Positions 4,901 through 49,000 of a stretch of DNA of 64,000 bases are shown here, piece after piece. The DNA is from Mytilus edulis (Eukaryota). The stretch spans positions 91,760,001 to 91,824,000 of the forward strand of contig NC_092347.1 in assembly GCF_963676685.1 (NCBI RefSeq), given 5' to 3'. Positions within the stretch are counted from its first letter, which is position 1. Each line of letters opens with the position of its first letter. A program made the translations under genes and the position numbers. The notes beneath the pieces were generated by a model. It did no database searches. It was not told where the DNA came from and worked only from the letters and a program-made list of their open reading frames with translations.

Positions 4901-6837
4901 GTTTTAGTTAGATGTATTTTGTTTTTTTACCCATCTGATGAGTTAAGTCTTTTTCAACTGATTTTCATATGTTTGTTCTTATGTTGTACAGTTACACCAT
5001 TGTCCCAGGTTAGGTGAGGGTTGGGATCCGCTAACATGTTTACCCCGCTACTTTCTGTATGTATGTGCCTGACACATGTCAGGAGCCTGTAACTTAGTGG
5101 TTGTCGTTTGTTGCTGTGTTACATATTTTTTTTTTCGTTCATTGTTTTTGTTCGAATGGTTTTACGTTTGTGATTTCGAGGTCTTTTATACCTAACTATT
5201 CGGTATTGGATTTGCTCATTGTTGGACATTTTTTAATGTACATGTAATACAATTTTTCACATTTAACACTATTTAAGGCCTACTGTGAATCATTTGGTGC
5301 TGAGCTTGCAACTATCGAAGACGCACAAGAGCAAGCTTACATAGAACAAATGCTGAATGGCCTTCCTCGTAAGTCATATCAATAGTTATGTCGTCCAAAA
5401 AGGATTAATATGTATATATATAAAAAGAAGATGTGTAATGATTGCCAATGAGACAACTCTTCGCAAGAAAACAAATGGCATAGAAATTAGCAACTATAGG
5501 TCACCGTACGTCCTTCAGGATTTATTTCATTTTACTAAATTTAAATTAATTGGCATCGCAAGATTTACCATTTCACTTTTCTTTAGAACAATAAGGCTTG
5601 TAAATTTGTAGATTAAAGACAAACTACGAAATAGAGAGACAAAATAAGGGATAATTATCATATTCAGAAGGTCAACGTTATATATATGCGTGTGTAACCT
5701 CCACTTTCAACTTTTTTTCTTTTTTTTAAGTTGGAAAAATGGACGTGATAAATCATATTTTAGCATTGAAATCGGTCGTAATATCTTATTTGGCTTGTTA
5801 ACTGATTAAAGGCATAAGAAGAAAAAAATGTTCTTGTCCTCAACTAATCTTATAACCCATACACTCTCTTTCATTTACGAGTATCTTTAACCAGGTGCAA
5901 ACAGATTATCAAACACAATTCATTACGTTTATAAGGATTTCTTGTACATTACATATTAACTCATTTCTTTTAAGATGATAAAAACCAAGCAGCGTTCTGG
6001 CTAGGAGGTCATGATATATTAACAGAAGGGGAATGGCAATGGGTTATATCAATGAACAGAATCATTTACACCAATTGGGGTGACGGACAGCCGGACAACT
6101 CACATACATCCGAACATTGTCTGGAATTGTCCGGACAAAGATCATTCAAGTGGAACGATGATGGCTGTGAGGATCATCATTACTTCATATGTGAAACTGG
6201 GTTAGTATATTAGTTTTGGACATTGCATAGTCCAGAGGCGAATGTAGGTGGATCATCCCTCCTTTCCCATTGTTACATATATGGTTAATACATTCACTTT
6301 TTACTTTTACAAACCCAGTTCTAACGTTATCAAGCTGGGGATCCCCTATTTCTGATTTTTTTATGCGCACCTGCCAAAAAATGATTATAATTTTGTTGAT
6401 CAAATAACAATATAAACATACATAGTTATATTATACACCGGTACCTGTTACTGTAAGTATATGATATAGTTTTAGCAATAATATTGTATAGTGTACTTTT
6501 ACATGTTTTAGTTAATTTACTTTTGAAATGCATCTTTAATATTTATAGAATATTTTCGTTTAAATTGGGAATATATCTTTAAACATAATCATTACATTTC
6601 TGCATTATGTTGCAGACCATAATACTTGTATTCATGAAATATAGTAAAAACGCAGACGCTGATGAAAAAAAAAATAATAGTAGACTTTTCACGTGATGAA
6701 AAATTCGGATTGAGGGGAACCTCCTCTGACTTTACCAAAGAAACTTTTACAATTGATTTAGTTCGTATTGAAATCCTGTTTTGTTTTGTTGTTTCAGAAT
6801 CATTAAAAACGGTGGTAGTATACTTGGAAAGAAATGA
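105..6837 (+). CDS. Secreted C-type lectin (perlucin-like), paralogue 1, about 195 aa
   Basis: Phase-consistent GT-AG exons: 105-135 (MDNLSFLICI), 903-932 (GYLIITADTS), 1580-1657 (Thr-rich), 4416-4507 (VPPPCPRDFLGHSTSCYHAAHILATWPEAA), 5278-5368 (AYCESFGAELATIEDAQEQ), 5975-6200 (FWLGGHD..EGEWQW..YTNWGDGQPDN..EHCLE..WNDDGC..FICE), 6798-6837 (IIKNGGSILGKK*). Total 588 nt. Canonical CTLD cysteines with WIGL-like, QPD and WND motifs. The N-terminal exons are less certain than the CTLD exons. Confidence 0.88.
2466..4210 (+). mobile_element. 5'-truncated, frameshifted CR1/L2-group non-LTR retrotransposon (RT plus C-terminal Cys/His region) in an intron of lectin 1
   Basis: ORFs 2556-2888 (NYRPISL), 2981-3430 (GVPQGSLLGP, LFADD) and 3703-4209 (CHCGSDIEDVYHYFLVCPKY). 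DFSKAFD lies between the first two ORFs. Several frameshifts. Confidence 0.93.
4826..5225 (+). repeat. Interspersed repeat family B (PLE 3'-end-like), with a decayed twister core at about 5005-5090
   Basis: Homologous to 7565-8100 (-), 20700-21212 (+) and 46775-49140 (+, interrupted). Contains GAGGG-TTGGGATCC-AACATGTT-CCCCGC..CCTG..CAGGAGCCTG. Confidence 0.75.
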
Positions 6838-7564
6838 AGATACATGGATTACACATTTGTTATTATTGTTTATATGAAAAGTATATTGGGATGATGAACA
6901 TGTTAAAACCCAATAAATAGCGTCCACATACTCTAGGTCCACACAATTTAACTAGATAAAATGCCGGTTCCAAGTCAGAAATATGACAGTTGTTATCCAT
7001 TCGTTTGATGTGTTTTGGCTTTTGATTTTGCCATTTGATTACGGACTTCCTTTTTGAATTTTCCTCGGAGTTCAGTATTTTTGTGATATTACTTTTTGGA
7101 TACTAATTCAATTATTAAGACTCTTCAATAGACTTAACACATTAAACAGGTCGGTTAGCATACACGGCAGCGTCATAACTGTCACGACGTTAAAGAATAC
7201 TGTCAGCACAAACTTTCTGGCAGGAAAATAATAATATAAGATTCAGTGATTTCGTAGCTGTTCATCAGACCGAATAGCCATTAATGTTATACATAAATTC
7301 AACAGTAGTTTAACGGTGTTCAAAGGTCTTAAATCGACTGAGAGAAAACTAATCCGGGTTACAAACTAAAACCGTGGGAACCACTTCAACTATAAGAGGG
7401 AAAAAATGGAAATAGGAACACTGAAGTGCAACAAAATAAAAACTGAAAACATATATATAAACGATCTATTTTATAACAACTGCCATATTCCTGTTAAAAG
7501 ACACAGTTCCTATCAATGTATGTGCTCATTACATATAACAATGGAAATGATTATGTTACTTGCT

Positions 7565-8100
7565 CTCGGGTGGAGTCAGCTATAAAAGGCCCCGAAATGA
7601 CGAATTTAAAACAATTCAAACGAAAAAACTAGCGGCCTAGTTTATGTACACAAAATAAAGAACAACACATCAACAAACGACAACCGCTGAATTAGTCTCC
7701 TGATTTGACAACCACATACATACAGAATGAAGTGGGCTTAAACATGTAAGCGGGATCCAAACCCTATCCCTAACCTGAGACAGTGGTGTAACAGTACAAC
7801 ATAATAAAGAACTGTAAAAATCAGTTGAAAAAAGCTTAACTCATCAGATGGATAAAAATAGACATACATCTAACAAAAACACGGAGTGGCCATGGCCGGG
7901 TATTTGTATATACATGTACCAACAACAAATAATAAGTACTGATCTGAGAGTACTCGCAGTTACTGACAGATGGTTCAAAGCCAATAAATAACAATTAATA
8001 TAAAAATCATGCATCTAATACTAAATTATCAATCAGTACACATCCAACATCAAAAGGATTTAGTGAAAAGACGTCATAAAATGTCAGAGAAAAACATGAC
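7565..8100 (-). repeat. Family B repeat copy, inverted relative to 4826-5225
   Basis: Reverse-complement match to 4826-5225 (CATCTGATGAGTTAAG, GGATCCCGCT, GGGGCCTTTTATAGCTGAC). Confidence 0.75.
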
Positions 8101-9628: not shown

Positions 9629-12600
9629 ATGGTTAACAGCATGATGGCTTTCTTTTATTTCTTCTTACATATTGGTAAGAATTTATTTAATTTTTGGGTT
9701 ATTTCTTTTTAAATTCAGTGATAAACACGATAAAAAAGGATTGAATTTTTGTGAGAATATATTGATTTATATATTGTTGGGTACCAGTTTTATTATAAAT
9801 AATTTTGTGTTGAAAAATTGGTATATAATATCGTATAAAATAAGTCGAACAGAAATAGTTAAAGTTATCGTGTAAGATACATTGAATTTCAATAATAGCG
9901 CTATTAATTAGCGCTGAGAGAAAACAAAAAGATAAAACAAAAAGCAGAAAACAAATTTTTTTTTTTTTCAAATCCATCAAGATAATGCGTTCGACTTGTA
10001 GCATTACGGTATTGTGTTTACGACCGGTTTTGTTAGATTTTTATTACGATATAGTTGATACCTTGTTCATTTAACTCTATACAGATGTATAAAAAGTAAA
10101 ATCACAAAAATACTGAACTCCGAGGAAATTCGAAACGGAAAGTCTCTAATCTAATGGCAAAATCAAAAGCTAAAACACATCAAACGAATGGGAAACAACT
10201 GTCATTTTCCTGACTTGGTACAGGCATTTTGTTATGTAGAATATGGTGGAGTCAACCTGGTTTTATAGCTAGCTTAACCTCTCTTGTATGGCAGTCGCAT
10301 CAAACTCCATTATATTGACAACGATACGTATAAAAAAACAAACAGACATAATAGGTAAATATGTCAACTATACAGCAGTCAACATTGTGTTATATGAAAC
10401 ATTGTGTTATAATCGTAATCACTAAAAAAACAAACAAAACGATATGTAACAAAGAAGCATAAAATGGCATATAGACTAAGCATATCACCAAAAATTAAAG
10501 ACAAGAATACACACATTTGTCATCGCATATATGATTTCTGGCAACTGTACCAGGGGATGTCTTGCATTAGCATTGAGTTATGAGCTATTCCTCCATGTTG
10601 AAGGCTATGTGGTTGTAACCTTGTGAGATAAGTAATTGCAAAGTTCTGTTTCTTTGCTTTCTATTTTGTCATGTGGTTTTATAGGATATTTTGTCCGAGC
10701 ATGATATGTGAGTAAATTACGTCATTACGTTTACTGTCAAGGATGCATTTATTAATTTGAGAATATCAGTTATTGTTAATGAAAAATATGGCATCATTAC
10801 TAAAAATATCAGTTACATTAGGCAATGCACCAAATCAATTACAAAATGACAACAAATCATATCTATATTCCAGGGAATATCATGGTGGTCATATCAAGAT
10901 GTAAGTGTCAATATATAAATACTGGTATTATTTACTAGGACTACAAAATGGGTGTTTTATCATAAAATGAAACATTTTATTCTTTGAAACTGCAATAGTG
11001 CAACTATATTTTTTTCTGAATAAAATGTAGTAGATTATCTAAATCTATATATATTATAATCTGTTTGCATATAAATTAATTAAAGAAAGATAAATAAAAT
11101 GTAAAGAAAATAAAAAAGTGTGAGGGTATCCAGATATTTTCAGATTGCATTAATTGATAAAAAAAAATCGTGTGTAAACTAGGATTTTTCGCAATTGTTT
11201 TTTTTTTAACGCCGTTTATATCACTAAAATTTAGAATTTTAGAAATACTAAGGCTTCTCTACCTCAGGAATAGATTACCTGAGCTGTATTTGGCAAAGCT
11301 TTTAGGAATTCTGGTCCTCAATGCTCTTCAACTTCGTACTTTATTTGGCCTTTTAAACATTTTTTGATTCGAGCGTCCCTGATGAGTCTTTTGTAGACGA
11401 AAAGCGCGTTGGTGTAAATTTAAATGTTTAATCCTGGTATCTATGATGAGTTTATTCACACCCATAATAAGTTTGCGGATGACGGTCAAATTGAAAAAAG
11501 TAAACAGAGAGAATTAGAAATGTTTGAAGGCAACATTTTCTAATCTTGCATGGAACAATCTCGCATGTTTCTCGATAATCAACAATCGCCCTGATAAATG
11601 CATGCAGTAATATTTGAATGTTCTCTATAGAAGCAGTATTACTAACTTTACTTGTTGTTTATTTTAGCGACTTTGCCAAACATTGAAACGCCTATCCCAC
11701 CAAGTACAAGTCAGACATTGCCTAACATGGAGACACCATTTCCGCCTAGTACGGTACAATATTTACCAAACAAAGAAACGCCGTTTCCACCATCAACAGT
11801 TCAGCCACTGGGAGTCGTGACCAATGCCACTGATTCACCTACAACTACATGTAATAATAGTTGCTTTATTTATTAATGTTTTATTAACAGTATTTGATAA
11901 TAACATGTAATTTTGTAAATTACATATTTCGTTGTGTAGTCATTTGAATTTTTCAAACATTCTTCAATAAAATTCATTTATTATTGGCCAATACCGTGCC
12001 AAGTCAAACAAAATTCTAGATTACATCTATTGTTTTTACACTTTTTGTCAATTAAATCCCTTCTGTGTAATGATCATTTTGGTGTTCCTTGCCTCGCAGT
12101 GTGCATGGTAGATTTTCCAAAAGAGATTTGTAGAATTACCTATGATACAGCTACGACAAATCGAACATCCGTGGTCATTTGGGACACTTATTCTTGAGAC
12201 AAAAAGACTATGAACAAAAAATTTAAAAAAAATGCGCATTTTCAAAACTTACAGTCATTTTTTAAATAAATTTTGAAAATCTATGCACAATAGCTTCATA
12301 ATATGAAGCAATGTCTGAACGTTGATTGTAATATACTAAAATGACTATAAATACCTTTGAATTATGGATAAAAGTATAACGCACTATATCTTCTACATTA
12401 TCTTAACACGAAATTAAGATTGTGACGATTAATCTCAAAGTAGAGATTTTACAAAACCCAAGCGTCCACGTCATCATGAACTGTAGTAGCAAACATTACA
12501 GAAATTAAATAAACATTCTGCGATACAGTGCATTAGATGATCATATATAACAAGCTGATGTTCACATGACCCATTTTATTTTAAGATTTAATTATAAATA

Positions 12601-15409
12601 TTAAAGTTGCATGTCCGAATTCTATTTTAATGTACTAATTAGCTTATACAAATGATACATTTTATGATGTTTCATCATTAGATGTTCCTCCGCCATGTCC
12701 AAAGGATTTCCTTGGCCATAGTAACTCGTGCTATCATGCTGCACGTGTCAAAGCAACATGGCCAGAATCAGCGGTAAGATTATAAACTTGCCATGTATCT
12801 GGCAATGAAAACTAATTTAATATGTGCTGATGCTATAGACATTAAATGCTGAAAAAATGAAAACAACACGTGAAATAATTTCATACGTTCAAAGCAATGT
12901 TCTGGATTTCCCTTTATCAGTAACACTCAAATATATGAAAACCAAGTTAACATGCAGGTACTAATATACATGAAAACAGAATACACATTTTAAATATTAC
13001 AATTTCAGGTAGAGAGAAAAACTAAAGGCTGAAACGATCTGAAACAGTAGGAATCGATTAAGATTTAGAACGTATTATTACCATGAACGTCCACATGTAG
13101 TGAGCGTTCCTGATATGCCGGCATCGCCCGGAATATATTTCCAATAGATAACATTAAAATAAACATATACAGTATAATATATTTTCTTTATGCACTTTTA
13201 TTGTAGGCATATTGTGATTCTTTTGGTGCAACTCTGGCAGTGATTGAAGATATACAAGAACAGTTATATTTAGCACAAATGCTGAAGACTTTACCAAGTA
13301 AGAGAGATTTTTTAAGCAATAAGTGTATATGTATACATATTGTATCCACGCAATGTTGACGGAAAACATAAAGAGTTCTATGTAAAATCCTTTCGTGTCC
13401 AATTATTACAAAAAGTAACATGGGGGCACACGAACTTTTTTTACACAGCTTGAACAACTTTAAAATATCCAATTGAATTACCGACAAACTTTCTCTTAAC
13501 ACTTTTATACACTTGATGTTCTAGTTAACTCAAAAAATTACATTTCTGATAATGCCGGAAATAATGCATTTTGGTTGGGTGGACATGATATACTGGTGGA
13601 GGGAGAATGGCAATGGGCGATAACTCTTGAAAAAGTACAGTACATGAACTGGGATTCCGGTCAACCTAATAACAATGACAATAATGAACATTGCATGGCA
13701 ATGACTGGCAGCCGAGGATATAAATGGGAGGACAAAAAATGTGAGGATCACAATTACTTCATATGTGAAACAGAGTAAGTATGTTCATAAAGTACAATTA
13801 AAAACCAATTCTTCAGAGAACAATTGAAGGTCTTTCCACCTCGATAATAAGAATGAGATTTAGAAAACGATGTTAGAAAATGTCACTCCTTGTTGATGTA
13901 ATTTGGTTCTTCAAAGTGATATAAAAACATAAAATTAATAGGTATATGCAGAAGACTTAAATGTTTTATTATGAACAATAATTTTTAGCAAAGGTCAAAA
14001 TCTGGAATGTCAAATTGACCTTTGAACTTGATCTAAATTTCAAGGTCATAGCTCAGTTATCTCAAATTAAAAGACCCCAGGTCAATCATTTGTATGGTTG
14101 TGGAGAAATACTGATTTCAAATACATAAGGGGAGAAAACTCCTATAAGGGTTAATCAAAGTACTTCGACTGAAATAGGTTGAAGTTGCACCTTTTTGTAA
14201 ACAGTAATTTGGCAAACAAATCATATCAGTAACTGTAACAGTTTCTTTTGAATAACGATAACAAGCAAAATTCAAAATTTATAACATAACCTTGACCTTC
14301 GACCTTGATCTCAATTTCAAGGTCACAGGTCAGTGAACTCAAAACGGAAGACCGGAGGTCAATCACTTGTATGGTTGTGGAGAAATACTGATTTGAAATA
14401 CATAAGGGTTGAAAACTCATATAAGAGTTAACCAAAACACTTTGACTGAAATAGGTTGAAGTTGCGCCTTATTGTAAACAGTTATTTGGCAAACACATCA
14501 TATCATTTACTGTCACAGTTTCTGTGGAATAACGATAACAAGCAAAATTCAAAATTTAGAACATAACCTTGACCTCAATTTCCTTCAAATGGACCAAGGA
14601 CTTCATATGAAAAGACTGTAGGCCTCTACGACTTATAACGTATGAATTTATCCAACAAATCGCCTATCTTAAATTTTCAAAGGGAAATAATTGCCATAAG
14701 ATGTCTTCCGATCACTCAAGTCAAAATAAGCCAAATCATTCTCAAGAATAGACGAACAATTTGGTGAAAACAGTTTTCTAAAATCTTTAACGATAACCAG
14801 AAAAAGGGACGCAGGGAGAGACTCCTATAAGATTAAGTGTTCGGTCACACAGGGTGAGTTTTGAAACCCCCATTACTGTACAACATCATTGGCCAAAAAA
14901 TCCATTCGATATGTTGTAAGACAAAAAAGAATCTCAGACGGCAGAAGAAAAAAAAAAGAAAAAAAATAATCAGAAGAAAAACAAAAGGTCTTTCCACGAA
15001 AAGTGGAAAGACCTAATTAGTATTCCATAGTTGCCTACAAAACATGATTTAGAAACAAACGAACAGATAATAATTTTAGACATATATATGTTTGTACAAG
15101 AATCAAAGTTCCAATTGTAACTTCCAGAATTAACACTAGATATATAAAAAAGTGCAAATTCAATGGTTTAAATTCATACCATACTCAAAACTCCCTACTT
15201 ATCACAAAAAAACATTTTTAGAGCGGAAATAACTGTTTCAAAACAGTATTCAAATTAAAAACATTTTTAGCTAGTTATAGTTACAGAATCTTTACAAATG
15301 ATCACACTTTTATGAAGAGATTTCAAATTATTACTTTTATACGTTTTCTCCATTTTTTTTCAGCCACAAAACCACTATGAATACAAACATAATATTTGGG
15401 AGGAAATAA
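9629..15409 (+). CDS. Secreted C-type lectin with a Pro/Thr-rich repeat stalk, paralogue 2, about 244 aa
   Basis: Exons 9629-9674 (MVNSMMAFFYFFLHI), 10874-10900, 11668-11850 (three 15-aa repeats of the type TLPNxETPFPPSTVQ), 12682-12773, 13207-13297, 13525-13774 (FWLGGHD..QPNNND..EHC..WEDKKC..FICE), 15364-15409 (HKTTMNTNIIFGRK*). Total 735 nt. The 92-nt and 91-nt exon sizes and phases match paralogue 1. Confidence 0.85.
10093..10520 (-). repeat. Interspersed repeat family C with a mutated twister-like core (10198-10295)
   Basis: Close match to 17818-18125. Fragments of the same family at 6957-7097, 17460-17670, 25838-25940 and 40257-40456. Confidence 0.8.
11225..11456 (+). repeat. Retrozyme/pLTR-like repeat with a decayed minimal type I hammerhead (11373-11415)
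   Basis: CTGATGA-GTCT(TTTGT)AGAC-GAAA-AGCGCG-TT core with short flanking stem I. Related decayed copies at 22336-22620, 23048-23400, 27744-27820 and 44985-45190 (+), and at 17055-17220, 24175-24500, 30140-30350 and 38500-39300 (-). Confidence 0.7.
13819..15016 (+). mobile_element. Non-autonomous Helentron-type (HINE/DINE-like) element in the last intron of lectin 2
   Basis: AGGTCTTTCCAC near the left end (13828) recurs in the terminal hairpin AGGTCTTTCCACGAAAAGTGGAAAGACCT (14986-15014). Internal duplication of about 290 bp (14016-14580). Confidence 0.7.
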
Positions 15410-16495: not shown

Positions 16496-17920
16496 ATTCT
16501 TGCCAATCTAATGTATCGTTCCCTCGAAGATGTAATGCCAATCGACTGGCAGTGGTGGCTGTAAATGCTACGTTTACTGCAATTTGAAAAAAATGATCAT
16601 ATCTTAAATACCACTTTCTAAACGTCAAAAATATTTCGGTCGGTAATATGATTTTGTAGTTTTAAACCAGTATCGTTGTAACTCTGATCAGACATTACTG
16701 TAATAAATTGTTATTTTGATGGAGAGTTGTCTCATTGGCACTTACACCACATCTTCCTATATCTATAGTTCCAACGTAGGAATGGCCACAGTAGAAATAT
16801 AACTGCAAACAATAACACTCAACCATTCCTAAATGATTCCGTTCAGTCGTCATTTGCAGGTGAAAAAAGTAACAGCTGAGAGAGATTATGAAGAAAGAAA
16901 TGAAAAATACACCAGATTGGACCAATGAACACATATAATTCGACAAGTACCGTGCTTCAGTTATATGACTTATAAATACAAAGGCATGAACTGTTTAACA
17001 ATATAATCACAATCACATGACAGTCGATCAAAATGATACTTGATTGATTTCTGTGTTCGAAGCGCTTTTCCGAATTATTTTTTTTTACCAGAAACGGTCA
17101 AAGCCTGACATTTGAAAGACATTAGTTTATAAATAAATAAAAGGGCCTAAAAAGAATAGCTAAATTAGGCTAAGTTCAAATTGAGGATGATAAACATACA
17201 GTTTCATAGTAATTTCTACATTTACCAAAGAGGAATTTTAGACACATATTATACGTTCTAGATAAAGGCAACAGAAGTATACCACTGCTCTATAGTCATA
17301 AATCGATTTAGAGTAGATAAATCAGGGTTCCAAACTAAACTGAGGTTAGCATTAGCTATAAAAGGAAAACAAAGTAACAACAAGAACACTGATCTACATC
17401 AAAAACAAATGCCAATATACATAGATTCGGACTATTTAAAATTCATATCAGTACCGAAAAAAGTAAAACAACAAAAAAAATGAACTCCGAGGCAAAGTTA
17501 AACGAGAAGTCCTTAAGCATATGGCAAAATCAAAACTTAAAACACATCAACCCCCTGGATAACAACTGTCATCTTCCTGACTTGGTACAGGCATTTCCTT
17601 ATATCGAAATGATGATTTAACCTGGTTTTAAAGCTAGGTAAACATCGCACTTGTATGACAGTCGCAAAAATCATGTACTACTGAGCTAGGGATAACCAAG
17701 GAGGTCGGTATCAACCCACTGCTTAAAAATCTTTATAAATATCATGACTCCGAAGCCCTTTACTAACTCAACCCTCAGCAGGATCGCTGAAAAAAAACAA
17801 GTATATATAAGTATTGAAAAGTAAAATCACAAAAATACTGAACTTAGAGGAAAATCTAATCGGAAAAGTCCATAACCACATGGCAAAATAACAAAACACA
17901 TCAAAAACGAATGGACAAGA

Positions 17921-18019
17921 ACTGTCATATTCCTGACTTGGTACAGGCATTTTCAAAATATAGAAAATGGTGGATTAAACCTGGTTTTATAGCGCTAAAC
18001 CTCTCACTTTGATGACAGT
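17921..18019 (-). ncRNA. Twister-like ribozyme (P5-type permutation) in a family C repeat (17818-18125)
   Basis: Minus strand reads ACUGUCAU..GUGA-G-A-GGU-[UUAGCGCUAUAAAACCAGGUU]-UAA-UCC-AC-CAUUUUC..GAAAAUG-CCUG-UACCAAGU-CAGG-A..AUGACAGU. P2 is imperfect. Confidence 0.6.
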
Positions 18020-20064
18020 CTCATCAAATTCCGTTATATTTACAATGATGCGTGAACTAACAGACATAATAAATAAAATAAGTCAAAATATGGGTACAGC
18101 AGTCATCGTGTAACAATTTTAAAAGAAACAAGTGAAGACCTATATGACAAAAGAGGGGAAAAAGTAACAGCCAAATTAATTTAAGGTTAACTTTGCTTGA
18201 CGATATTACATTTTTTTCTTGATATATAAAGACAATGATGTATGTTATGAATTATGTCAGTTCCACATACTGACACTGAGTTGAGGATAACAGTGGGGAT
18301 GATAACCTTCCTGCAGCAGTATAAATCCAATGCTATAAAAATTAAAATTACAACTTCTAATGACAAGCTGTATAAGGATATATAAGAATAGACACAGGTC
18401 AAGAGCCATTTGGCCAAAAGTTATTCGCCAAATCAATCAATATCAAGTTGACCAGAGGAAGTATAAAACTAGTAGGACGCTCAAAATTTTAGGACGGGAA
18501 AAGTGTCTCATAAAACTAACTACCTAGGTGATTTTTGACGCCCTTTACTGGTTGGTAAGACATTGAACGGTCTTCAAAGTGTCCAAAGGCGTTTGGTGAG
18601 CATTTAGATATCATGTTTTCAAGTTCGAAAAAGGCGGCCATTTCGGGTTTTTTTACTGTTATTTTGATTGTTGTCTACTTCCCTCACAACGGCTGTTTTC
18701 AAGGCCAGGTATGTCAGCCATGCAGCTAGTTTCAAAAACCATGATGTTGAAGTGCTGGTTGATGAGTCTCCAACCTAGTATTAACGATGACAGGAAGCAT
18801 TATCAGGACCACAGTCGGGAGACCGTGAAATGACAGTACATTATTTAACATTTCTACTAAGGATACAGTCCCTTGGATGTCAGTCGTCATCCATAATGTG
18901 TTGTTGTATGCTGAGGCGGGTATTTACACTAAGCAAAATATATACTGTGCATCGTTGCACTGGTTTCTGTCATCGAAAGTAGTACGTCGTTGAACCATCT
19001 AATAGTAAACAAACATTGTAAATAGCGGGTAAAGAGGAGCTGACCAACCACGTCCTTTCAGCTGATAACGAACATATTTCAAGGAGTTAAGCACCATTTA
19101 TTATTAGTCATTTTTTTTTCACTTAAAATTAATAAATGAAAATTTCAGAGTGCTCGAACACCCGCATTTTGAAACCCTTAATGATCTATACAGCCATTTT
19201 TTCGCCAATTTCCGATCCTTTGGCAATCAAAATCCTGTTTAGTATTTATCATAAAGCAAACACATTAACGACAAAAACTTAACGACAAAATGAACATAGA
19301 CATATCTAAAAAGGCAGCAGCATACAGTCATCAACAATTTCAAAAAGACGGATGTCCTTTCAATATGTTCAGGATCAAATTCCTCCTAAGTATAGACATG
19401 GAATTTCAAAATTCAGGATCTTCGCTTTTTTTAAAACATTAAATGCATCTAAATTTTATTCATATAGTTCCTGCCATGCATGTCGATACATTTATTTTTG
19501 GCATTGCACAAGTCATGTCTTCTCTGACTGTTCATGACGTTAAATAATAAATTCCTTGGATATGTTTTAGTTGATTTTAGTCTCTGATGCATGATTTTTT
19601 ATTATTAATTGTTTTTGGCTTTTAACTAGTTGTCAGTAACTGCGAGTACTCTCAAATCGTATTTTCTTGTTAATTCTATCTGTTGATACTGTTTATAATG
19701 TTTTTTTATTATTTTATATTAATATGGATTTTGTCTATATACCAGCTTTGATTATTTGGAATATCTACTAATTTTCATTTCTTCGTACTACATTTGTATG
19801 AACTTCAAGATTATTCCCCTTAAATCTGTACAGGGTAGTTTTAGCTAGCTCTAATTGTATAGTTTTGTTGTTGATATTCACCCCAATTTGTATCTAGTGT
19901 TAAATTATGTATTTATATGACAGAACCTTCTTGGTATTCCTAATTATTGGAAGAATTTTATACACATATGTAGTATACCTAAAACGACAAAGTTTTTTTT
20001 TCATTTACCTTTATATATTATTAAAACCGGTTTTTTTCAAAAGTGATTATTTTCGAAGGGTTAA

Positions 20065-20653
20065 GGTTCATCATAAGGAATTGAAAAATATGGCCGTGTT
20101 TACACCTCCAAAATTACTATGAGTACAGACAAACTGGTACATCCAGGAAAGTTTTAAGGCATGGCAGGAACTAGATATATAAAAGTTATATGAAGTCTAC
20201 GTTTCAGAAAATTAAAAACTTGCCTGGATTTTGATGTTCATTTTTTTCCAGTCGGCAGAAGATAGCAAAATAAACAAACACCTGAGTTTCATTTGATACG
20301 GTCCACTCAGTTACACAGTTTAAACCTGTTAAATCACCTATTGTTTACAGGTGTCTATTGTCCATCTATTGTCCATTTAAATCAATACTACTCACAACAT
20401 TGATTATATGAGGGGAGCTTCTCAATCGTTTTCACTACTTAGTTAATTTTTGCACCTTCTGCAGGAACGAAAAAAAATGGATAGCAAAATCTAGAAAAGT
20501 TTATAATTTTCTGAAACATAAAATGCATTTAAAATTTATATATCTAGTTCCTGCCATCCCTTAAAACTGTTGCAGGTGTATAGGTTAGTCTGTACTCAGA
20601 GTAAAATTTGGGGTGTAAATACGGCCATTTTAGCCAAAAGGTTATGATGAACC
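20065..20653. mobile_element. Non-autonomous Kolobok-type DNA transposon (MITE)
   Basis: TTAA on both flanks (20061-20064 and 20654-20657), termini GGTTCATCATAA..TTATGATGAACC, imperfect inverted repeats extending about 130 bp. Confidence 0.8.
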
Positions 20654-20699
20654 TTAAATATTTCGCGATGGTGTCTTGCCATGGCTTTGTTTGGACTTT

Positions 20700-21212
20700 T
20701 TTGTTTACTTATTGGCCTTGAATGTTTGTCCCGAATATTTTATTAACTGTGCATTTGCATTCAGCTATCGCAGATCTAATTTATTCGTTCATAGTGTGTT
20801 AATTTACGTTTTTTGATTGAGTTAAGCCTTTCAATAGATATTTTATCGTGTGTTTTCTATGTTGTGATGTTATGCCATTGTTTCAGAAAAGGGAGAAGGT
20901 TTAGTACCATTAAAACGTTTAATCCCGCTGCAAATGTTTGCACCTGTCCTCAGTCAGGAATCTGATGTACAGTAGTTGTCGTTTGTTTATGTAATTTATA
21001 AGTGTTTCTCGTTTTTTATATAGATTAGACCGTTGGTTTTCCCGTTTTAATGGTTTTACACTAGTAATTTTGGGGCCCTTTATAGCTTTTTGTTCGGTGT
21101 GAGCCAAGGCTCCGTTTTGAAGGCCGTACATTGACCTATAATGGTTTACTTTTATAAATTGTTATTTGGATGGAGAGTTGTCTCATTGGCACTCATACCA
21201 CATCTCCATATA
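20700..21212 (+). repeat. Family B-related repeat carrying a near-intact twister core and the shared 3' tail
   Basis: Ends in GAGAGTTGTCTCATTGGCACTCATACCACATCT. The same tail occurs at 700-838, 5414-5517, 16697-16765 and 60620-60718. Confidence 0.75.
20883..20965 (+). ncRNA. Twister ribozyme (P5-type), one loop-4 substitution
   Basis: UCAGA..GGGA-G-A-AGG-[UUUAGUACCAUUAAAACGUU]-UAA-UCCC-GC-UGCAAAUGUUUGCA-CCUG-UCCUCAGU-CAGG-A-AUCUGA. Confidence 0.7.
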
Positions 21213-21779
21213 TCCACTTAACACTTTATCATGTACACCTGTTTTCTCTTAATCAGATGTGAACTAGTGTCTGCTTACCGTTCTATAGCTACTGTGACCA
21301 TTCCATTTTTTTTTGGGGGGGGGAGGATTCTTCTTGCTCAGTCTTTAGTTTTCTACATAGCATTCTGTAGATTGTTATTATTTTATTCGTCGTTTTTCGT
21401 CTTTTGTAATGGTATGATCCTTGTTCTAAAGAAATAAGTTTTAGTTGTCCATATAGTATCTCTGTCATGTTATTGTGAATTAAACAGACACGACCTTTCA
21501 ACGCCAATATGCAGCACATCAATCTAAAATGCTGTTTCGATATATAAAGTATGCCTTGATAAATTTTAGAAGAAAACATATGTTAAAATTTTACAACCAG
21601 TTCAAGTATTCGTATCTGAAAAAAAAAATATTTCATTGGTTAAAGTCATTTATTATTTAATATCTAAAGTCTATTTGCATTTCCTCGTCAGATTAGTTTA
21701 ATAATTACATTAAATCAATACGTTTTACTAAATCACACAGTAACATTATTTATCTTATATAGTTTTATCAGTTAGCTGT

Positions 21780-24900: not shown

Positions 24901-27136
24901 ACTTTCATATTTTTTTCAATTCTTCGGTATGCTTGAATATTTCCTCCAAGAATCTAATGCAATCCTAGAAGCTACTGATAAAAAATTGTTAAAAAAAAAA
25001 GACACAATAACCAAGTCTTGCCGCATGCTTTCGTACTTAACTTTTATTATGTTGCGGTTCCTAGTGAATGTCATAACAATGTTCTAAATGACAAAGTTGT
25101 GCAGTTGTAAAATTTTGCGAATATTCAATCAACAATAGAAGGCAAAGAAAAGAATAATGAACATTCTACTGAGCGTTAAAATGCAATCTTTGCAAAAGAT
25201 GTATGAAAAATAGATTTTGAATACACAGAACATGGGACTTTAACAAGAAACGAAACAAGTCGATATGACATATCTATCTTGATTGATATTTCCCATTTTT
25301 TATATTAATTTTTATCCGTTTTTCCAACATATGTATCAAACATTATCTTATCAAAAGTAAATCTATTAAAAGATTGCAATATGCTTTCGTACTTTTCATT
25401 GATTGGAGACCATGCATGCATATGATGGTCTAAAGGTGATCATTTGATTAAAAAAAGTTTGTTTTCTTGGGATTTTGTTTTTTTGTTTTTTGTTTTGTAA
25501 TTATTTTAGGGAGAGGGATTCTTTTGATATTCTTGCAGTTTCCAATTCTTAACGTTATTCACATATATATATCTTTTTATTAAATAAATCGTAAAGTTTG
25601 AGCTACAGAAATGAAATAAACGTTTTGCAACTTTAATAATTAAAAATACAAAGGAAATGAATCTCTAACAAATAACTTGATATCTTATTAGGTTCTAATG
25701 ATTCTGCTAGAATCAAACGTCTAATTAATGTTATATGATTGGAATGGGGTTTGTGGAACAGAAAAGAACATATCATAAAGTATCTATGTTAATGAAATAT
25801 AATGGTTGCAAATAATCCAAGGGTAGAATGACCAGAACATTCGTTTGAAATGTGTGAGCTTTTGATTTGTGCCATTTGATTAGGAACTTTCCTTTTTGAA
25901 TTTTCCTCGGACTTCAGTATTTTTGTGATTTTATCTTTTTTTTCAAGGCAAATGTAGATTTCAGGTGAAAGGATAAAGGAACGGTTGTTTTTCGGATAAA
26001 AGACACAAAGCGATAAGAAAATGTTATACTAGGACCTAAAAATGGATAGATACAGGAAATCCATCATAAAGATTTCAATGTGCTATGGACAAAAAATTAT
26101 AAATCTTTGAACTGCAATTATAATATATTGGTGGTTATGACTTTAAGATCATATGTTCTCTCATTATAGATCAAATGAAGGATGTTGTACTTTAGTGAAG
26201 TGTTTCTTAATATAGAAACAGACATCAAAGGTGTTAAGTTCTTTATTTAATTGGGGTTTAACACGTGAATTCGCATTTGGTCTGTCATAGATTTAGGTAA
26301 GATTCTTTTTAATATTTTGTTTTTATCCTTTATTAATTTTGGGAGAATGAATGTATTTCGAAATCAATTACAAGGATGAGCATTTTTCAGTAACAATGCC
26401 TTTGATTTTGCTACTTGATTCCGATTCGAATTTTTCTTGTGGTTCGGTAAGTTTTTTGTTTTACTTTTTTTGCAGTCTGGAGAATTCAAAGAAATTACAA
26501 AAATAATTTGATAGAGGGTACACAATTTCAAGGGATAATTAAAAATCACAATTATGAGAAAGACAGATACCACAATTGCCGTACAAAAAGACGAGCAGAT
26601 ATACATCAGTCCATTACTCTATTCCGAAAAAAAAAATTACCAGTTCAGAAATGAGTTGAAATAGTGCTCTACAAGCCTGGTTTATTGTAAACATTCGTCG
26701 TTTTCTATTTCAAATCTGTATTGTCACTGAAAATGATTCAAAGAATAGCAGATTGGTACATGTAAACTGCCATTAAGGCAGTTATACAGCTATCTCGCAA
26801 AATATTGGAGTATGATAAAGCGAGATAATCAGTACAACTTGTATTCCGCAAACATTTGACTCTGTTAGTTGTACATGTATTTGGTTTTTTTATATATATA
26901 AATAAATAACACCTTTTAAATACAAATTTGTGTTTTAGGAAAAACCAATTATCCATAAAAAAAACTCTGATTAAAAAAACTGGGTTAACTGTGTAACTGA
27001 CATGATGCTTGAGTTTTTCGTTGTTTTTATACAATATATATTAGTATGTTTTGGAGTCTGCTTTTCGCTAATCAGTATGTTTTCTTAGAATAACCAAATG
27101 TACTCTTTTTATCACTAAAATGTTTCTTTTACTGTA

Positions 27137-34082: not shown

Positions 34083-37000
34083 TCAGACACAAGTTTCTGG
34101 AGCAAACCCAACTATACGAACATTTCGGACACGTCTGACCAGACCACTTATATCTGGTCTCATGCAGGATACATGCCGTGGCGATTTAGGTGATGGTGGT
34201 CCCACCCAGGAATTCGGATGGACTCTTTTTGGTGATCGTGGTCGTTCCTCCTCCACTACTATGTTACGTGTTTGGATGGGTTGTGGTCTGGGAGACTGAC
34301 GAGGTGATCCATCTACTTCATCTTTACCCTCGAATCTCAGATTTTGTTTTGTTTCATCTACTTCTTTTTCATTGGTTGGTGTTTTGATAATTCCATTTAG
34401 AACTTTGCTGCATTTAGAAAAATAAATTTCGTTTTGTATATATGCAAACAGGGCAATATTCACATAATTCATATACAAAATAGCATTATAACAGTAGATA
34501 CTGTAAAACATGTAATTGTTTTCATGCAAACTTAAGTTCACATAAAATATAAAAAAGATAATGAATACATTGATTGAACATGCGTACATAAAATAAAACG
34601 TCAATCATTATAATAGAATTATAATAGAATTTTGATAGAAGAAACATTAATTATTTTTTTAACTGCTACAGTTTCCAGAGACACATTTTTACAATATACG
34701 AAGGTGAAGGATCACATTGTTTTTACATTGTGGGTACGAATTATGATTTGAAATCAAATCTTGGGTAGTAATATAGAAGTAAGATTCCATAGTGACGGCC
34801 ATTTAATTAAGTCTTTTCTAATTTTCGTCTATATATCTGAAGCCCTTTTTCAGGACTTGCTGCAAATGGCACAGTTGCAAACAACAGCATTACTTAAACA
34901 TTCAGCAAATAAACAGACGTCCCAGAGTTATACAATCGAAACGGTAAAAAACCCACTGGCAGAAATTACCATATCAATATACCCCAGTCAACACTTGTGA
35001 TGCTAGTAAAATTAGAGAAATACGAAAACAACTGAACGCGGAAACCTTTTTGTGTCGACATGCTAAGATATAAGGAACTCCATAAAGTCGTGGAATAAAA
35101 CTGTAAATTTATTACCAATTTAGAATTTTGCTAACATAACCCTTACAGGAGCACTATCCCAAAGAAAACAGCATAACTGTAAACTAACAAATAATCCTTG
35201 AATATCTGTTGTACTTTTGAAGGGCCCCGAATATAAATAAAGGCATAAAGGCATAAAGATATGTCCCAATAATTTGTTGTCGATGTTTTGCTGGGTGTAT
35301 TTGCACTATATCTGTACTCTTATAATGTTTAAGTTGGTTTTTGGGGGAATGGTATTTTCCTTTCCTTTCAATAAGTCGAATCATTATCAAATTGTACATG
35401 TATGATATAATATGTAGTGTACTTATGCAGCATAATACAAAGATGATCATTAATACAGAGAACACAAACATTCACCTATCAGTGAATATAATACTGAACC
35501 ATATGGTGCATCAAAATAAGGAGACTATTTGTGATTCTATATGATAAAATAAGTTGTCGTAAGACGTTTTTACTTTCAATGACTATATTTTTTTCGACTG
35601 ATTTCACTATTCTTTTATAATACTATAAAGCAATATCAAGGCGTCCTATATTTTTTAGGAAATAGTTTTCTTATTTCAAAAAATTAGCTTAAGATTGTTT
35701 TTTACGTAACAATATCTTTAATGCATATTTGCTTTTCTAAATACAAAAGGAATAGAGCGAGAGCTTTCTTAACCTGGCATTATGTCATAAAAGTTTACTA
35801 TGTTTAACAATATACATTGTTTTGTATGTATGCTGACGTTTTGTCTTTGAAGTACATTGCAATCTTAAGCTAAGAAAAAGTACAAAAGATACGTATTTGT
35901 GACACAATAACTTATTAAATCGTTTTGTCTTTGAAGTACATTGCAATCTTAAGCTAAGAAAAAGTACAAAAGATACGTATTTGTGACACAATATCTTTTG
36001 TACTTTTTCTTAGCTTAAGATTGCAATGTACTTCAAAGACAAAACGTCAGCATACATACAAAACAATGTATATTGTTAAACATAGTAAACTTTTATGACA
36101 TAATGCCAGGTTAAGAAAGCTCTCGCTCTATTCCTTTTGTATTTAGAAAAGCTAAGATCGCAATTTATTTCGAAAAATATAAAACTTCCATCGAACTTTA
36201 ACAAAAATGCAGAAATACAAGTTCATACAGTGATACAAGTTTAGTAGTGTTCTAATGATTTAAACAAAAACCACAAATAGGATTTACAATATGTACAAGT
36301 TAGAGTTCTTTTGTTCGGATTTGTTTAACAACTGTGTATAAATGAATCCATTTGAATGTTGCTTATAAGTGAATTTGCCAAAAGCTAATATCGAAATACA
36401 AAATACTAAACCTAACTGAATGGTATATTCCTTCATAAAGTGGTGGACATTACAGTATAAATACTCTATCGACATTGAAGAGAATAACACCCATAATAAT
36501 AAAATACTATTTATTCAAAAATTTATCACAAAATTGTCCTGCTAAGTCAAACGCAAATTTCTCTGGAAAAAGAACAAAACATATAATCTTTATACAGTTT
36601 CTCACAAATGTAGCATGCCTGTTCGTTTTCTTTGTTTGTAAGATTCGGAAACATTCTTGTCGGATTTTATCGACATCTGTTTCTTTGATGTATTTGGTTG
36701 GTCTTGTTCCATTTTTCTGAAAATGGACAATATTCACAGAATAACAACATATACTACACTTTCCGATGTTTAAACAATAAATGCAAGTGTAAATAAAAAA
36801 AACAATGCTATTTAACAACCGCGATTCGTACCTTTCTTAGTGTATTGAATAGTTTCTGAACAAAATGAAAACCATCAATATTAAATAATTTCAGCGATTA
36901 CCGTCTCAGCTTTGATAAAAATAAAAGTGTCAGGAAACAAAACTTTTGAAGATGAAAATCTCTGACTGTTAGGTGAAAGATCAACTAAAGAGTCAAAATT

Positions 37001-46000: not shown

Positions 46001-49000
46001 CTATATACTCAATCTGTAACATAATCAAGCTTTATTAAACTTTAAACCAAACATCAATGAATTATTAATTAACATACAGAAACCAATGATATAATATGCC
46101 ATTCAATTTTACCCTTTTCATTTTTGTTTTATAAAAAAATTGGTTGCAAATTTAAAATGAAAAAGTAAGTAATAACATAAAGATAACACATAGCTGAGAG
46201 GATGACAGAGCAGACTGACAAAACGTTGTAAACCGAGGTGATTGACAATGTGTTTTCAAGGGGTAACAATCTACAGTATAACCCTCTTAATTTTATATGT
46301 GTGCCTAAATGTTCAGTTATTACTGCCTATTAAATTTCTAATTCAACATCATAATCATAATCATTTAATAAAGCACACAATTGACCAAGCATCTCTGTGA
46401 ATGGTAATAGAGTAAATTATCTCCCTTGTATAAACCTATCAAAATCAGGCATTTAAACTTGAAGTATAATAACCAATGATATTTCACTTCAACAATAGAG
46501 GGCAACTATAATAACTTTCTCATACTGTAACATGACAGTCAATAGTAGTATAAGTGAAAATCATTATCATAATATCTTTACAGTGTCAGTTTTATTTCAA
46601 TTCTGACATTTAAATATCTTACATCTTCTTCTGACCAAAGTCCAGGTGTACCAAAGGACTCCAATAAATCAGCACCACATAACAGACGTAGATTGACGGA
46701 ATTATCTGATTTATTTCTTAAATTGTGATTAGCATTGTCATCATCTGTAAAACAAATATTTACATTTTAACAGTTTGTTCTTATATAGTGCTGTAACACT
46801 ACTGATCCAGGTAAGGGGAGATAGAGGGTTCCTAAATGTCTTACCCAAAACATTCTATAAGCCAGTATCAAGTCAGGAGCCTGTAATTGAGTGGACGTCT
46901 TTGGTTGCTGTCTTACATATTTGCACTTCTTTTATCAGTCAGGGGACTTACTTAAACAAGTGATTTTCTAAATCACTGATTCAAGTAACATTATTTCCAT
47001 AAAAGTTGGAAGTTAGAGTTGTCTTTCTTTAATAATCACCTATTTAAGTAGTACAAATTAATCACTAGAAGAAGTGATTTAATATTAGTGTAGCTTTAAA
47101 TATAGAATACTAATGATCCAGGGACTAATTATGTTTCTAAACTTATCAGAACCAACATCTGTGTTGTCTAGGATGACCAGGTCATTTCAGGTGATGACCT
47201 TGTACTGAATCTAGGATAATGACATAAAAATCACTTGTTTAAGTATCAGACCCCAATTTCCTTCCCAAAAAGCACTTCTTTAAGTACATTCTTTAATAAC
47301 CCCAACTAATTTCAACACCCCCGAACAGTGAAATTTTTATCACGAACAGTAGAATTTTATTACATAATCTAAAAGATGAAACCTTGAACTTCACAGGAAA
47401 AATACTCCCACTGCTGTGAAAAATCTTTTAAGAAAGTATCAGCTCATTATGTAAAGCCATTATTATAGCATTTTTTCAACTAAAATAGAGTTTTCAGGTA
47501 AATGATAGCATCAAAGGCACAAACCTTGCTACTTAAAAGAAGCAAAAAGTTCATATTTTTTAATTTTACTAATTAAAAGATGTTATTTAATAATACTTTT
47601 AGATATTTGGATGATATTTTGGCTCTCAATAATGACGACTTCAGTATGTATATTAATGAAATTTTTCCTGTTGAACTTACTTTAAATAAAGCTAATACTA
47701 ACAATGACCACTGCCCTTTTCTCGATCTTGATATCTATATCACTAATGGAAAGCTGAATACTAAAATTTATGATAAAAAGGGATGATTTTTCATTTCCGA
47801 TCGTTAATTATCCGTTTTTAGATGGTGACGTTCCCTTGTCACCATCTTACGGTGTTTATATATCTCAACTTGTACGATTCGCTCGTGTATGTAACAATGT
47901 TTTAGATTTTAACGAGAGAAATTTATGTATTACTGAAAAATTATTACACCAGGGTTTTCGATATCACAAACTAGTCAAAACATTTACTAAATTTTATCAT
48001 CGGTATAAAGACATCATTCGTAAATATAGCTCAACATGCAGACTTCTAATACGTTCAGGTATTTCACATCCAATTTTTTATGGAAATATTCTTTATAAAG
48101 CACAAAGGTGTCAGTATTCACATCAGAAACTTACAAAACCTTTGAATAGACTTATTAAGAAGGGATATAATTACGATACTGTTGTCAAGTCATTAAAGAT
48201 TGCATATTTTGGCGTTAATATTGAGTCACTGATAAGGTCTTTGCATCGGAACTAAACACATTTATTCTAAAAACAGTTGTTGGCATGACACGGGTTATGT
48301 TCTTCTCATATATGTTATGATGGTATGATACTAAACCCCTAACGGGAAGGATTGTGCCTGATGTTCATATGATGAAATCATAATCTTTCAGTCAGTTTAA
48401 TTGAAGTCTGGAGCTGGCATGTCAGTTAACTGCTAGTAGTCTGTTGTTATTTATGTATTATTGTCATTTTGTTTATTTTCTTTGGTTACATCTTCTGACA
48501 TCAGACTCTGACTTCTCTTGAACTGAATTTTAATGTGCGTACTGTTATGCGTTTACTTTTCTACATTGGTTAGAGGTATAGGGGGAGGGTTGAGATCTCA
48601 CAAACATGTTTAACCCCGCCGCATTTTTGCGCCTGTCCCAAGTCAGGAGCCTCTGGCCTTTGTTAGTCTTGTATTATTTTAATTTTAGTTTCTTGTGTAC
48701 AATTTGGAAATTAGTATGGCGTTCATTATCACTGGACTAGTATATATTTGTTTAGGGGCCTGCTGAAGGACGCCTCCGGGTGCGGGAATTTCTCGCTACA
48801 TTGAAGACCTGTTGGTGACCCTCTGCTGTTGTTTTTTATTTGGTCGGGTTGTTGTCTCTTTGACACATTCCCCATTTCCATTCTCAATTTTATTTAAACC
48901 TATGTGTTTAAAATTTTGAAAAAACTACAAAATCCCAATTTGTGACAAAACCTCGAATTTGCTATTCAAATAAGTGATTTAAAAATCACTTATTTCAGTA

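Follow-up and report, generated by a model that had tools for sequence, protein, structure and literature searches.

The window examined here, a stretch of 64,000 nucleotides of Mytilus edulis contig NC_092347.1, carries at 19481..21214 (+) a 5'-truncated family A copy of a Naiad Penelope-like retroelement (PLE), identified by BLAST to longer copies in loci L122 and L123 and reduced to its 3' UTR. The copy is split by an insertion: its segments 19481-20064 and 20654-21212 match L122/L123 at 89-92% (BLAST), while the 589 bp between them (20065..20653, no strand assigned) form an inverted-repeat insertion (20061-20270/20448-20657, 79%) with, in the junction sequences, a TTAA duplication at 20061-64 and 20654-57. 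With its 12-bp terminal inverted repeats and TTAA duplication, the insertion is a non-autonomous DNA transposon, presumably of Kolobok type given its GG...CC ends. A SECIS-like element occupies 19524..19584 (+) of the 3' UTR (Rfam SECIS_1, 22.5 bits, which is below the gathering score of 35, with E 0.023 in a 181-base search). The RNA fold that concerns us lies downstream at 20883-20965 (+), in the 3' UTR/pseudo-LTR of the element.

A family B copy is found at 47577..48893 (+), with a frameshifted RT C-terminus (stop at 48255, from the ORFs), a SECIS-like element at 48307-48371 (+) (SECIS_1, 32.3 bits) and a related ribozyme fold at 48568..48658 (+), whose predicted cut falls between 48611 and 48612; its full-length relative is in locus L189. 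A second, inverted family B copy at 51141..51785 (-), with its core at 51387-51453 and its SECIS at 51663-51727, is 98.8% identical to 48249-48893, and the two ends, 48249-48893 (+) and 51141-51785 (-), face each other with 2.2 kb between them. The motif recurs in other decayed copies, of families C and D, at 4860-5197 (+), 6958-7097 (+), 7574-7929 (-), 10078-10381 (-), 17458-17666 (-), 17802-18105 (-), 25838-25940, 40164-40457 and 46764-46922. The window also contains tandem repeat arrays at 13987-14575, 35837-35997 and 52392-53688, the last with a unit of about 139 bp at 52535-53688.

Full-length relatives identify the host element. The family A relative in locus L171 has a 1,003-aa frame with RT, in which an N-terminal GIY-YIG-type endonuclease and a CxxC finger can be recognized by eye, and a KR-rich block and the CxC, GxKY and DKA motifs are all present, again by eye, in the two element proteins P0001 and P0002. 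These motifs match the Naiad diagnostics in section 6 of PMC8557442, as far as that source was available, and the Naiads published there (Naiad_Scon, Naiad_Mmer, Naiad_Mgal) share the N-terminal endonuclease, CxC and DKA, pseudo-LTR tandems, 5' truncation, and TGA at cysteine sites together with SECIS. Pfam and PDB searches with the element protein returned no family and no match. The L171 frame contains five in-frame TGA codons, four of which correspond to TGA, and the fifth to cysteine, in an alignment with the family B protein, which has 63% identity to that of family A. SECIS-like elements lie 3' of the stop, only one of them scoring above the Rfam gathering score. L171:4219-7230 (-) and L189:3838-6987 (-) thus appear to encode selenoproteins, with four TGA codons at matching cysteine-type sites; in the available part of PMC8557442, selenoprotein Naiads are listed for clams and spiders, not for mussels.

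Partial tandems of the pseudo-LTR type, a Naiad trait, are found in L171, L189 and L190, and every pseudo-LTR has the motif, one per repeat unit, with a spacing of 4,444 nt in L171 and L190 and of 4,035 nt in L189. Among 20 RT-anchored loci, picked for diversity from 150 matches, 16 carry a sense-strand motif 3' of the RT stop (it is absent from L174, L176, L181 and L182). Exact genome matches to four core patterns number 17,237, 6,297, 2,015 and 155. Family A 3' ends are fixed, as 30 of 35 copies end at +302 to +310 from the predicted cut, while 5' ends are scattered.

The fold at 20883-20965 has the layout of a type-P5 twister, all on the + strand. P5, the open end of this permutation, is formed by TCAGA (20883..20887, from the sequence and the predicted fold) and TCTGA (20961-65). 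P2' (GGGA, 20891-94), which pairs with the TCCC of P2 (20923-26), is followed by GA at 20895-96, where G20895 is the predicted general base (a layout as in Table 1 of PMC8501958, in its available part), and by the T1' strand of the first pseudoknot (AGG, 20897-99), whose partner CCT (20948-50) lies in loop L4. A linker of 21 nt then leads from T1' to the predicted cleavage site, between U and A at 20920..20921 within TAA 20920-22; both this site and the predicted role of A20921 as general acid derive from the twister layout. Beyond P2 come the second pseudoknot T2 (GC, 20927-28, with partner GT at 20953-54), the P3 hairpin (20929-42), P4 (CCTG/CAGG, 20943-46/20955-58) and loop L4 (TCCTCAGT, 20947-54), which has a rare A>C at 20951. 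The original prediction had presented this site as a second twister family, differing from 48568-48658 by paired changes in P2, the pseudoknot, the P3 closing pair (U-A here, C-G there) and P5, and retaining UAA, G-A, GC and CCUG/CAGG; all of these letters are indeed at the positions given for them. Moreover, a consensus built from genomic copies, the check proposed with that prediction, does not lack the paired changes: the majority of 29 other copies (the best 29 of 4,876 candidates in a search of the 1.37-Gb genome, with two locus pairs that look duplicated) keeps every one of them, so that they represent the state of the family and not a quirk of one copy.

The covariation between the two sites had also been read as support for a selected RNA fold. 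We agree that the fold is selected, but two sequences alone give just 3-4 covarying pairs, and the two sites are members of two among many repeat families, not independent loci; the case rests on further families. A pairing-based descriptor with few fixed core letters gave nine zero-mismatch matches in 600 kb of evenly spaced genome sequence, eight of them in these families, as against 0, 1 and 1 in shuffled sequence and 0 in reversed sequence. Clustering yielded six families (A, B, C, D, G and H), each with three copies or more. Across seven representatives, taken from A, B, C and H, every cell is paired (119 of 119) and both sides are altered in 4 of the 17 pairs, whereas no pair changes on both sides when the partners are slid by 1-3 columns; the representatives being related sequences, these counts do not amount to a probability. 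Families D and G were left out of the count because MAFFT misaligns their shorter P2.

The variants found among families are of the same kind. The first P2 pair is U-A, C-G or A-U in this genome and G-C in a clam; T1 occurs as CCU/AGG, CCC/GGG and ACC/GGU (the last in D and G, parsed by hand); T2 as GC/GU (a wobble), AC/GU (D and G, also parsed by hand) and, in two clams, CC/GG; and P4 as CCUG/CAGG, CCCG/CGGG and ACCG/CGGU. All P2 and P4 cells pair in A, B, C and H, while P2 is shortened and bulged in D and G. The T1 end pair is not strict, with A.G in 14 of 39 family D copies and U.U in three published consensuses. Between families the motif is 58-75% alike, compared with 49-52% after shuffling, and the flanking sequences on both sides show background similarity or little more in 11 of 12 between-family comparisons (the exception being A-C downstream, at 73%). 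A subfamily of G with four copies, for example at L280:1487-1595 (-), has a P2 mismatch beside the catalytic GA and is possibly in a shifted register or inactive.

The same layout can be recognized by eye in the last 600 nt of five bivalve consensuses (Naiad_Mgal, Bpla, Mphi, Scon and Mmer) from the available supplement of PMC8557442, with letters that differ among them in P2, T2, P3, P4 and P5. These five are among 16 published Naiad 3' ends that can be assigned, species being attributed by file order; the motif is absent from the published 3' ends of Mcor, Amil, Sdum, Ptep and Tama, as available. The ribozyme region of family D reads, by eye, like the published Naiad_Mgal 3' end. A chance resemblance spread by transposition would have some appeal, as the copies descend from few sources and any consensus can be copied thousands of times. 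However, the covariation extends over families with proteins of 63% identity and with flanks that cannot be aligned, and the layout recurs in clams, so that we regard this explanation as scarcely credible.

Most features of the twister class are present. The cleavage site is followed by two adenines (A+1 and A+2) and preceded by U or C depending on the family, a variable N-1 being expected of twister according to the portion of PMC11662667 available; G and A precede the T1 partner in all family consensuses; the 3-bp T1 pseudoknot is present and covaries (CCU/AGG versus CCC/GGG); so is the 2-bp T2 pseudoknot, the usual twister form of which is GC/GC; and loop L4 has the G-C closure, the U.A and A.A pairs and the T1 and T2 strands in the family, although the 20883-20965 copy has A>C at A.A. 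In contrast, stem P1, which in twister lies beside the cut, is replaced by two palindromes. A P1 in register was rejected for both window families and for all 12 representatives examined: none of the 12 has a pair at either of the first two in-register positions, and 0-3 of the six positions pair. Nor did Rfam twister models match, at E up to 10 locally or at E up to 1 on four loci, and neither hammerhead nor other ribozyme models matched at the site; a genome search with RF02684 gave no match, as did its control. The identification as a twister thus holds for the core and its order, but not in a canonical sense, and we file the Naiad motif as a twister variant since it departs from the class in P1 and in Rfam score.

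The type-P5 twisters (RF02684; PMC5408937, in its available part) share with the Naiad motif the order P5-P2'-GA-T1', then N and AA on either side of the cut, P2-T2-P3-P4-L4-P4'-P5', as well as the L4 architecture, both pseudoknots and the predicted catalytic G and A. The Naiad motif differs in having two palindromes and no P1, in its T2 (GC/GU, AC/GU or CC/GG) and in not being matched by the Rfam model. Another retrotransposon twister core, with a weak or mismatched P1 and core letters near those of family B, is known from the Schistosoma mansoni Perere-3 T-variants (PMC8501958, in part available). Those are of type P1 and begin a non-LTR element at its 5' end, where the cut adjoins the target duplication, whereas the Naiad motif is of type P5, belongs to a Penelope-like element, some 300 nt short of its 3' end, and has no copy ends at its cut.

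In place of P1, the linker holds two loop-less palindromes, one directly after T1' and one ending at most one base before the cut. At 20883-20965, palindrome 1 (20902..20909, +; family forms TGGTACCA, TGGATCCA and TGGGCCCA) takes the place of the 3' strand of P1, and palindrome 2 (AAACGTTT, 20913..20920, +), which ends at the predicted cut, that of the 5' strand. Family A thus combines TGGATCCA, TGGTACCA or TGGGCCCA with AAACGTTT. The corresponding stretches are TGAGATCTCA (48591-48600, +) and AAACATGTTT (48602-48611, +) in the family B copy of the window, GGGATCCC with AACATGTT in family C, and TAGCGCTA or TAGCTAGCTA with AACCAGGTT in family D; family G has the palindrome TGGCATGCCA. The two palindromes are of similar length and separated by 2-4 nt. 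In 11 of the 12 representatives (the exception being the 20883-20965 copy) both are at least 8 nt long, each with P of 0.00005-0.006 in shuffles. Two such palindromes occur in 0.005-0.6% of shuffled or random linkers, values that do not multiply across representatives, which are related. Both are also seen by eye, with other letters, in all five published bivalve consensuses that have the core, in the part of the source available.

Palindrome 1 is maintained as a symmetric sequence. Among the first 100 of 1,654 genome matches, its centre in family A is AT in 62, TA in 33, GC in 1 and non-palindromic in 4 (counted by hand); self-complementarity is thus kept in 96 of 100, double changes preserving the symmetry and single changes being rare. 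As the central bases of a loop-less palindrome cannot pair within one strand, the pairing must join two copies. Predicted self-duplexes have energies of -12.5 to -19.2 and -5.9 to -9.2 kcal/mol, palindrome 2 being weak in family A, while the linker alone has nearly no predicted fold. Short loop-less palindromes are typical of DNA sites, and they might accordingly act in DNA, bound by a dimeric protein or a promoter factor in the pseudo-LTR independently of the RNA fold. PLE promoters are indeed located in pseudo-LTRs (PMC6765202, in its available part). However, the letters are almost wholly different between families, and even subfamilies, that share the symmetry; there are extensions of G.U type, and the palindromes hold a constant position relative to the RNA fold, all of which makes such a DNA role very improbable.

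Replacement of P1 by two self-complementary stretches suggests instead a fold that likely cuts only when two copies pair. On balance we favour the view that the Naiad 3' tail carries a type-P5 twister-type fold without P1, which likely self-cleaves between U20920 and A20921 upon pairing of two copies through their palindromes. We hold cleavage of the core between N and A to be highly probable, because the catalytic positions have been preserved and twisters can do without P1 according to the accessible portions of PMC5408937 and PMC11662667. Given such cleavage, it is likely that each of the two palindromes pairs with its own counterpart (1 with 1, 2 with 2) in a second copy. The similar palindrome lengths and the 2-4-nt spacer lead us to picture two side-by-side intermolecular helices with one core at each end, in which a helix would reach the cut as P1 does. 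In the predicted monomer fold the cut site lies inside a competing hairpin, from which dimer pairing would free it. Monomer folding energies are unremarkable (z -1.5 to -1.6 in family A, +1.2 in family C). The opposite strand was rejected as the folded one (z -0.96), as it folds worse and is without the core. Full-sequence cofolding energies were not used because they include neither pseudoknots nor both palindrome helices, and other stems swap strands in them.

A precedent for dimer-dependent cutting is provided by the minimal type-I hammerheads of PLEs (PMC4209133 and PMC6765202, both available in part). These too lie in pseudo-LTRs and have a palindrome in place of a stem, a feature conserved in the Naiad motif; those with a palindromic stem III cleave only as dimers or trimers. 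They belong to another ribozyme class and have one palindrome, where the Naiad motif has two. Unit-length cutting and circle formation have been proposed for them, and our proposal for the Naiad motif is modelled on those in the two papers, as available. Tandem transcripts (with a family A unit of 4,444 nt) would hold two copies of the fold and be cut to unit length. Since the cut falls within a closed loop, both ends of a unit would come together again in the fold and be held for ligation into a circle, and reverse transcription round the circle would generate pseudo-LTR tandems. Lone copies would mostly remain uncut.

The core could also be active as a mini-twister in monomer form, with the palindromes dimerising the RNA for some other purpose such as RT loading or end joining. 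Tolerance of P1 deletion without loss (PMC5408937) and the lack of effect of P1 imperfections in natural twisters (PMC11662667, which also finds T2 wobbles tolerated) speak for this in the parts of these sources available. Another Naiad motif, described below, likewise has two palindromes, so dimerisation may serve the element and not the twister. Yet the palindromes occupy exactly both P1 positions, one of them ends at the cut in every family, and free cutting would remove the last 305 nt, which are present in 30 of 35 family A copies. We therefore consider monomer cutting a less likely arrangement than cutting upon dimer pairing, though one to be taken seriously.

Genomic copies leave no footprint of cutting. 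Their 5' ends do not cluster at the predicted cut, with 1 of 103 within 5 nt (a sample without D or H and with nine partial G rows left out), so that a cut which becomes the 5' end of inserted copies, as in R2 or Perere-3, is not seen. The two upstream pseudo-LTRs whose start is visible begin at about -110 and about +20, and among young family A copies such a start is reached in only 1 of 20. The predicted cut is spanned by 8 of 35 family A copies, and only 1 of 103 starts within 5 nt of it; the insertion template must therefore be uncut or re-joined there. Circular templates and gated cutting are both compatible with this, but so, to the same degree, is a fold that derives from twister, is catalytically dead and has been retained as the binding site of an element protein. 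A dead fold would also be consistent with the absence of an Rfam match and with the invariance of the P4 and loop letters within the genome, as expected of a protein site. Against it, none of the families and none of the five published bivalve consensuses (as available) has lost the predicted catalytic G or either adenine after the cut, while stems change, and N-1 varies between U and C in a twister-like manner. Loss of catalysis thus seems improbable to us.

Selection acted on active source elements and not on the 20883-20965 copy, which is a decayed, 5'-truncated fragment without an ORF. The original prediction had noted that this copy has loop TCCTCAGT where the family has TCCTAAGT, and had suggested that it may be inactive for that reason. 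The difference is real, as TCCTAAGT is found in 26 of the 29 other copies and the C at 20951 in only 6 of 2,015 exact genome matches to the P3-P4 stretch. The suggested inactivity is weakly based, however, because the base concerned is the trans A.A partner, at which A-to-C showed no significant difference from controls in the available part of PMC11662667; taken by itself, the loop change is no sign of inactivity. Under the dimer model it would be outweighed by a G>A at 20903, within palindrome 1, which is seen in none of the first 100 genome matches and in 4 of 39 similarity-biased loci. This change reduces the predicted palindrome 1 self-duplex from -13.0 to -3.6 kcal/mol, and the copy is probably weakened by it.

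A literature search, carried out mostly outside subscription journals, found no report of twisters in Naiads, Penelope-like elements or bivalves, nor, in the available parts of sources including 10.64898/2026.07.22.740005, PMC10085705 and PMC11620745, of a palindromic twister dimer. The text of PMC11662667 contains neither 'Mytilus' nor 'mollus', although its supplement and the lists of the original twister paper may hold bivalve entries. According to PMC8557442, Naiads are without canonical hammerheads, an absence presented as their chief difference from other PLEs, which hammerheads may merely parasitise; the word 'twister' does not occur in its text and supplement as available. If our interpretation is correct, the twister fold supplies the ribozyme that Naiads were reported to lack. 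A palindrome-gated ribozyme of another class would then argue that unit-length cutting of tandems belongs to the replication cycle, and the circle-template model could be put to the test with a 90-nt RNA. Such a ribozyme would moreover count as a new twister architecture, with copies numbering in the tens of thousands within one animal genome and missed by current Rfam models. More tentatively, bivalve Naiads may hold the first natural obligate-dimer twister, with two side-by-side helices; the PLE hammerhead may have been replaced in Naiads by unrelated palindrome-gated folds, of which a second motif (in an oyster, a hemichordate and other Naiads) would be self-cleaving too. We put forward this broader scenario as a speculation that may well prove wrong.

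The second motif is another conserved structured element of an abundant repeat, observed at L100:4047-4177 (+), with palindromes CCACATGTGG and TCCGGA, and also in L080, L121, L156, L199, L220, L223 and L276. Rfam models did not match it at E up to 10. It may be a second self-cleaving RNA, as yet undescribed, and its letters GCAG and GCUYAC are reminiscent of twister-sister. Among the published Naiad consensuses, in the part of the set available, CGi, Sglo, Olur, Tgra, Pmar and Skow-1 finish in a motif of this layout whose palindromes have different letters.
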